A DNA stretch of 64,000 bases from a virus (lineage: Duplodnaviria; Caudoviricetes), in IMG/VR virus record IMGVR_UViG_3300011217_000001, positions 128,001-192,000 of that record; one strand, given 5' to 3'. The notes beneath the pieces were generated by a model. That model had not been told where the DNA came from, did not search any database, and saw only the letters and a list, made by a program, of their open reading frames with translations. A program made the position numbers and the translations under genes. Position 1 is the stretch's first letter. Each line of letters begins with the position of its first letter. Positions 19,035 to 19,436 of this stretch are shown one piece after another.

Positions 19035-19436
19035 TTACTTGACGATGAACAGCGCCGGTCGTTTGCCACGCTCGGGCTTCTGTCGAGGACGATCCAGATA
19101 CATCGGATCATCGTAGAGGTCTTCTTCGTCGATCAGGTCGTTGTCAAACCGGATCATACCGTCATCGCCGCGATAGCCCACACGGTAGGCTACGCTGTTG
19201 TGGAAGTTGACCACGCCTACGATAACCACAGCAACAGCTGCATCGGGCAGATCTTCAGGCTTGGGGTTCACGTTGCCCATGAAGATACCCATCCATGCGT
19301 CGTCACCGATGCTGTACTTGGCTTCGCGGGTGTTGGCGAAGATCTCGGCAGGACTGAAGGTGAAAATCTCCTGCTTGCTGATCAGCACCTGAGCTTCGGC
19401 CTCTACGGCCTCAAACTCGTTTTCAAAGTCACTCAT
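19035..19436 (-). CDS. Hypothetical protein with SH3-like core, acidic linker and SspB-like ClpX-binding tail
   Basis: KYSIGD..VVIVGV..YRV; DNDLIDEEDLYDD; C-terminus GKRPALFIVK. Confidence 0.65.
   Translation of the reverse strand: MSDFENEFEAVEAEAQVLISKQEIFTFSPAEIFANTREAKYSIGDDAWMGIFMGNVNPKPEDLPDAAVAVVIVGVVNFHNSVAYRVGYRGDDGMIRFDNDLIDEEDLYDDPMYLDRPRQKPERGKRPALFIVK

Follow-up and report, generated by a model that had tools for sequence, protein, structure and literature searches.

The window analysed here, a stretch of 64,000 nucleotides, is part of a 230,357-bp virus record that is 99% complete. An open reading frame (ORF) that runs from 19436 to 19035 on its minus strand encodes a protein of 133 amino acids (aa) with the C-terminus PERGKRPALFIVK (Table 1). 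The closest named relative is Xoosp14_61 of Xoo-sp14, a jumbo phage of Xanthomonas, with 94% identity and a shared gene order. The genes around the ORF match PHROG families of internal head and virion proteins, and the phage was read as phiKZ-like. The vicinity of the gene yielded no promoter of the sigma-70 type. Comparison of the window with Xoo-sp14 and the IMG/VR locus L002 revealed codon changes of which 33-41 are synonymous and 8-10 non-synonymous, with a stop position that was constant in these three close genomes despite the use of three codons (TAA, TGA and TAG). Because synonymous changes exceed non-synonymous ones and the stop is kept in place, the ORF, judged from these sequences, is a real gene under purifying selection. 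Sequence searches of Pfam, PHROGs and the PDB assigned neither the protein nor its relatives to a family, and the Atlas feature matches DUF3104 and R67 DHFR (0.78-0.85) were under the lead threshold. Two other ORFs of the region were observed in passing: a MazG-like nucleotide pyrophosphohydrolase at 16834-17727 on the minus strand (PHROG 671, E 7e-18), which is unannotated in Xoo-sp14, and a small opposite-strand ORF at 16564-16797 (+) with an ssrA-like DRLVA end, which is retained in Xoo-sp14 and L002.

Table 1. Features of the 133-aa gene and its surroundings, in window coordinates.
Feature	Position	Strand	Basis or remark
Gene for the 133-aa protein	19035..19436	-	Orthologs Xoosp14_61, LUCX_191, RTH11 WJJ55000.1
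N-terminal acidic helix, moderate model confidence, starting at the Met of the internal motif	19332..19436	-	AlphaFold2; alignment to longer relatives
SH3-like (Tudor/chromo/KOW class) beta-barrel over residues ~40-112; holds the acidic stretch and invariant G44, W48, Y84 and G87	19101..19319	-	AlphaFold2; fold searches
Pro/Arg-rich flexible linker, residues 113-125, poorly conserved	19062..19100	-	AlphaFold2; pLDDT <50 from residue 117
XB-like tail RPALFIVK (residues 126-133), putative docking peptide for the ClpX N-domain	19038..19061	-	SspB-tail profile; conservation
Terminator-like GC hairpin with UUCG loop, directly after the stop, z = -5.9	18996..19033	-	Conserved in Xoo-sp14 and L002
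o-spanin-like lipoprotein with a 1-nt overlap (TAATG) between its stop and the 133-aa gene's start	19436..19804	-	Neighbour, probably not a functional partner
i-spanin-like membrane protein	19677..20216	-	Neighbour
Diverged SspB homolog of the phage (Xoosp14_69), which also ends in an XB tail (GRPFLKVVK)	12425..12949	-	Xoo-sp14 annotation; profile comparison; ~6 kb downstream

The preliminary description had the gene translationally coupled to the spanin genes, and this applies to the Xoo-sp14 lineage only. There, the 1-nt overlap is found, and the unit of three genes (both spanins and the 133-aa gene) is flanked by the hairpin after the stop and by another at 20253-20274; given the overlap and the hairpins on both sides, the three genes are probably read as one transcript in this lineage. 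Outside it, spanin and family genes are separated by gaps of 8, 8, 37, 77 and 87 nt, a strong terminator-like hairpin stands between them in LucasX and L008, and in L011 the upstream gene is a different, unrelated one. We interpret the overlap as a side effect of a deletion that took the N-terminal domain found in longer relatives (described below). Spanins work in the envelope, beyond the reach of ClpX save for a short N-terminus, and they are therefore unlikely to be its cargo.

The spanin genes showed a rearrangement of their own. LucasX, RTH11, L003 and L008 encode a lipoprotein o-spanin of 71-77 aa with two C-terminal Cys, wholly inside the +1 frame of an i-spanin of 217-240 aa. In the lipoprotein of the window lineage, residues 13-53 match those o-spanins (E ~1e-4), residues 66-119 match i-spanins of the relatives in their C-terminal segment (E ~1e-8), and no Cys is left outside the lipobox. 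As far as the alignments indicate, a domain of the i-spanin seems to have been transferred to the o-spanin by a frameshift in this lineage (window 19436-20216 (-); L006 9236-9913; L003 7270-7992; L008 6974-7627; L094 7160-7840). Behind their terminator-like hairpins these phages have a short [TC]T[TC]TATG-like tail in place of a long U run (18996-19033 and 20253-20274 in the window; L006 9914-9961 and 10703-10754; L008 7622-7680).

Iterative searches gathered a family of nine members: the proteins of the window, Xoo-sp14, L002 and RTH11, LUCX_191 from LucasX, the relatives P0005 and P0006 on contigs of 180-296 kb, and the metagenomic proteins P0010 and P0011. P0004, a repeat-rich protein of 2,400 aa, was rejected as a compositional match. 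When viral models were searched with Foldseek, clear matches were obtained only to entries of the size of the Xoo-sp14 and LucasX proteins. The 133-aa protein is a conserved, uncharacterised member of a small family in giant Xanthomonas-type phages. The family is strongly acidic, and its invariant columns are G44, W48, Y84, G87, P127, L129 and V132, three of the seven lying within the last seven residues. Mean pairwise identity among six distinct lineages is 0.55 for the last eight residues, 0.31 for the core and 0.15 for the linker.

Five of the relatives are longer (211-250 aa) and possess an extra N-domain and a disordered acidic linker. The N-domain (residues 1-72; P0005, P0006, P0009, P0010 and P0011) is modelled as three helices; in the P0010 model the pLDDT is 83-96 across the first 70 residues. 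Its fold matches are generic helical ones only, including MazG-like proteins (Z ~6). All five long members contain an internal [VI]-x-[SQ]-[MLF]-x-[DE]-F-[KRQ] motif, for which the chance probability is 2.4e-6 per position. The first residue of the window's protein corresponds to the Met in this motif (V-x-S-[MLF]-x-[DE]-F-[KRQ]), of which M-S-D-F is the sole remnant, and the motif is absent from the RTH11 member. The helical N-domain was not found elsewhere in the window's genome, the best match (E 0.07) being a short YGDW in the i-spanin. By alignment, the 133-aa protein belongs to a family of longer proteins and has been shortened at its N-terminus. The parsimonious reading is that the N-domain was lost twice independently, in the Xoo-sp14 lineage and in RTH11, on a family tree without well-supported branches.

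AlphaFold2 modelling with an 8-row alignment (mean pLDDT 70.5) predicted a small barrel of five strands with a 3-10 turn ahead of the last strand, as in the Tudor/chromo-barrel/KOW class. The fold searches returned SH3-like barrels only (chromo-barrel, Tudor, PWWP, KOW, nitrile hydratase beta, R67 DHFR and HspQ). The best match was the MRG15 chromo barrel (Z 5.9, or 7.4 using the P0010 model), and the 53BP1 Tudor domain gave Z 5.4 and, with the P0010 model, 6.7. Such matches are generic: the modelled barrel is SH3-like by fold class only, which is uninformative on function or family. The small beta-rich SH3-like core proposed earlier was upheld as a fold class by the model and the fold searches. 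The protein had also been described as non-SspB, which agrees with the SH3-like barrel predicted instead of an SspB core, with the lack of a Pfam match in any family member and with the absence of the SspB fold among the fold matches listed. The acidic linker described with them did not hold. Residues 98-110 are modelled as the closing part of the barrel, with its last long strand, the 3-10 turn and a short final strand (pLDDT ~83-84), and the free linker comprises only ~13 residues (~113-125) and is not acidic. Since the acidic stretch belongs to the barrel and the true linker is short and non-acidic, the parallel to the long acidic linker of SspB is weak.

The parallel drawn between the C-terminal tail and the SspB terminus, on the other hand, was borne out. 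Eight of the last 11 residues are the same as in E. coli SspB, whose C-terminus (PDB 8ET3 chain Y) is PPRGGRPALRVVK. The tail RPALFIVK fits the XB motif [RK]-P-x-L-x-x-[VI]-K, its one non-consensus residue being the Phe at -4; in 78 host SspB tails this position is occupied by K, R, T and H only, never by Phe. Only 2 of the 1,327 ORFs in the six frames of the 230-kb genome, the 133-aa ORF and ORF 12425-12949, end in L-x-[VIL]-[VIL]-K, and ~4e-4 ORF ends of the form [RK]-P-x-L-x-[VIL]-[VIL]-K are expected by chance in this genome. A position profile was built on 76 SspB tails from beta- and gamma-proteobacteria. On this profile the 133-aa protein ranks second among the 1,327 ORF ends with 18.7 bits, after ORF 12425-12949 with 22.3, and the best unrelated ORF end of the genome reaches only 3.8 bits. 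Host SspB tails score at least 15.0 bits (median 26.3), a range that includes the tail of the 133-aa protein. The tails of the same two ORFs also gave the top two scores among all 190,646 nine-residue windows of the genome.

The tail is conserved in the family as well. The motif [RK]-P-x-L-x-[VI]-V-[KR] is present in 9/9 members, terminal in eight of them and followed by six more residues in one; it is the best-conserved block, and loss of the tail was seen in no homolog. AlphaFold2 models it as disordered and exposed. An exposed peptide that matches a ligand of the ClpX N-domain is one mark of ClpX tethering adaptors, and the sequence and model of the 133-aa protein provide such a peptide. 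Prediction of a complex between residues 100-133 and the N-domain dimer of Xanthomonas campestris ClpX with Zn gave a score of 0.18 (mark 0.32), which weighs neither way. From the motif, the profile and the conservation, the RPALFIVK tail very probably docks on the ClpX N-domain. The XB-like end of RssB turned out to be buried in the RssB fold (PMC7226468), a caution that a motif match can mislead, though the tail of the 133-aa protein is predicted to be free.

The other ORF with such a tail, 12425-12949, is annotated as SspB in Xoo-sp14; it is missed by Pfam and matches Pfam-positive phage SspBs (profile probability 95.5%, E 1.5e-8). Its core contains insertions and its XB tail is intact. In 9/9 loci the family gene is followed, 1.6-6.5 kb downstream, by an sspB gene; since these phages are broadly syntenic, this proximity alone is weak evidence. 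Neither a ClpX zinc domain nor ClpP was found in the 99%-complete phage genome, and the target would therefore be the ClpXP of the host. When viral contigs were scanned with a narrow pattern, XB-like ends turned up on four SspBs and on a few small ORFs unrelated to them; on that evidence, mimicry of the XB tail in viruses may recur and seems uncommon. The small ORFs, with tails such as RRPFLRVVK and GRPDLRVVK, belong neither to SspB nor to the family of the 133-aa protein and include L225 1426-1656 (-), L255 1111-1305 (+) and L236 9911-10276 (-).

The internal motif of the long members points to ClpX from another side. The SspB of LucasX has no XB tail and ends in SVSSMADFRARRK plus three residues, a near-copy of the internal motif of P0011, and the SspBs of RTH11 and L011 have looser versions of this alpha-type motif at the C-terminus. 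The LucasX protein is LUCX_196, an unannotated SspB (Pfam E 4.9e-11). SspBs with the alpha-type motif in place of the gamma-type XB tail were located at L006 12917-13483, L094 11523-12062 and L011 5168-5695. Bacterial proteins ending in VVSLDxFRKK are nearly all alpha-proteobacterial, and 74/80 belong to one family, which Pfam identifies as SspBs. This alpha-type tail was reportedly found by Chowdhury in 2010 to bind the ClpX N-domain. The two known SspB tail types thus appear to be exchangeable on SspB in this phage group, and the long barrel members appear to have one of each. The recurrence of both types is independent support for a family built around ClpX docking. It also hints at two ClpX tethers within one chain in the long members, and a second tether there would fit the need of SspB for bivalent tethering; the dimerisation of SspB is required for efficient delivery, according to PMC9963277 (its reference 28).

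We propose, with a probability of about 0.5, that the 133-aa protein is a phage tethering adaptor for host ClpXP with a cargo domain unrelated to SspB. Its tail would bind the dimer of the zinc-binding N-domain in host ClpX, in the way that the SspB tail does, and its SH3-like barrel would bind a host or phage protein, probably at a basic or peptide site because the barrel family is strongly acidic. The bound cargo would be concentrated locally at the ClpX pore, where ClpXP would degrade or remodel it. In the long members the internal motif would serve as a second tether in the same chain, and the Xoo-sp14 lineage would depend on the C-terminal tether alone. The adaptor is the best reading because the barrel is conserved, the layout is SspB-like and a pure decoy would hinder the phage's own SspB. 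Several observations count against it: the Phe at -4, the short linker, the six residues beyond the motif in one homolog, and the erosion in the window's protein of the putative second tether that 5/5 long members have. In addition, even the best of the fold matches (Z 5.9-7.4) are generic. The preliminary description had named the protein a candidate ClpX adaptor or inhibitor. The presence of the tail in every homolog, its predicted exposure and disorder, and a phage without its own ClpX zinc domain and ClpP favor this candidacy, in which ClpX binding stays predicted.

A broader form of the adaptor reading is more tentative. It is possible, though we would not call it probable, that jumbo phages joined SspB-type docking peptides to an SH3-like cargo domain and so obtained a dedicated ClpXP adaptor that sends a specific host protein, for example a defence or stress regulator, to degradation. 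In the same tentative scheme, the gamma-type tail and the internal alpha-type motif of the long members would form a single-chain bivalent tether. The system, working alongside a retuned phage SspB, might then be the phage counterpart of viral E3-ligase hijacking.

The same tail could instead make the protein a competitive decoy or inhibitor, which occupies the N-domain sites of ClpX and blocks host adaptors and N-domain-dependent substrates, so that phage proteins are protected or host regulators stabilised; the barrel would then be a scaffold for stability or oligomerisation or a second contact with ClpX or ClpP. Free SspB XB peptide does inhibit the sigma-S turnover that RssB mediates (PMC7226468), two tethers in the long members would add avidity, and a short linker suits a rigid blocker. 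However, the phage's SspB, encoded in 9/9 loci, would face competition from a decoy, and a peptide alone would suffice, yet the barrel retains its invariant G, W, Y and G. We regard this alternative as rather unlikely. It is less likely again that the protein is itself a tethered substrate, in which the barrel (with the helical N-domain in the long members) does its own job and the tail serves as an enhancement tag, so that turnover of the protein or remodelling of its complex by ClpXP acts as a timer. N-domain tethers are used as enhancement tags by UmuD and MuA, and C-motif 1 degrons are pore degrons of the Ala-Ala type. The tail of the 133-aa protein ends in basic residues (K/R), as in SspB, and not in such a degron, although RcdA has a C-terminal tail that serves as both tether and degron (bioRxiv 10.1101/2020.06.12.148478). 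The position of the gene in a hairpin-bounded spanin unit in the Xoo-sp14 lineage would suit a timed late function, but the link to the spanins is not conserved in expression terms.

There is also a slight chance that the tail binds some other partner (a beta-strand-accepting domain, Lon or HslUV as HspQ or LarA do, or a phage protein) or is the vestige of a graft from the neighbouring sspB. The layout of an SH3 barrel plus tail recalls HspQ (5YCQ, Z 4.5-5.6), and the Phe at -4 is off the host consensus. Against a partner of the HspQ kind stands the lack of sequence kinship to HspQ (hhalign probability 2%; no Pfam match), and a vestige would not remain the best-conserved block across ~30% core identity. 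The recurrence of both known SspB tail types in the family argues against either version.

If the tail docks on ClpX, these phages would redirect or block the main regulatory protease of the host through a modular peptide, and the partner of the barrel would show what these phages want removed. The family is a natural test of swapping and combining gamma- and alpha-type SspB tails in one chain, and it offers a scaffold, compact and natural, on which targeted degradation of bacterial proteins could be built.

Literature searches turned up no description of a phage protein that has an XB tail and is not SspB, and the LucasX paper makes no mention of Clp or SspB. The nearest known system is SspB, in which a native domain is followed by a disordered region and a short segment that binds the ClpX N-domain (PMC9963277); PMC8138137 cites PDB 2DS7 as the structure of the XB tail on ClpX's zinc-binding domain. 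Like E. coli SspB (PF04386; PDB 1OX8/1OX9, 8ET3), the 133-aa protein combines a folded domain, a flexible linker and a C-terminal XB peptide. Unlike it, the protein has neither the SspB fold nor an ssrA-binding groove but an SH3-like barrel, its tail has Phe at -4, and its linker of ~13 residues is far shorter than the long disordered acidic one of SspB. Jumbo-phage SspB homologs (RAY gp039, Xoosp14_69 and RTH11 WJJ55006.1) come from the same kind of phage, lie adjacent to the family gene and have XB or alpha-type tails. They possess the SspB fold and presumably use host ClpXP, whereas the 133-aa family is without this fold; RAY gp039 of Erwinia phage RAY is known as an annotation and is cytoplasmic (PMC10299810). 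The alpha-proteobacterial SspB tail V-V-S-L-D-x-F-R-K-K resembles the motif inside the long members and at the end of the LucasX SspB, but the family motif is internal, not terminal, and its register is shifted by one residue. HspQ/YccV (PF08755), an SH3-like specificity factor of the AAA+ protease Lon, shares with the modelled 133-aa protein a small barrel, a C-terminal tail and a K-[FY]-x-I-G start, whereas the tail of the 133-aa protein is of the ClpX type. The HspQ structure 5YCQ matched with Z 4.5 (rmsd 3.6, 58 aligned) and 5.6 (rmsd 4.3, 59 aligned), no better than Tudor and chromo domains, and homology to HspQ was rejected on sequence grounds (hhalign with two HspQ sequences gave a probability of 2.3% across 12 columns; no Pfam match). 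The 133-aa protein is outside the SspB and HspQ families, and its tail suggests that it probably works like a ClpX tethering adaptor of the class of SspB, RcdA and RssB.
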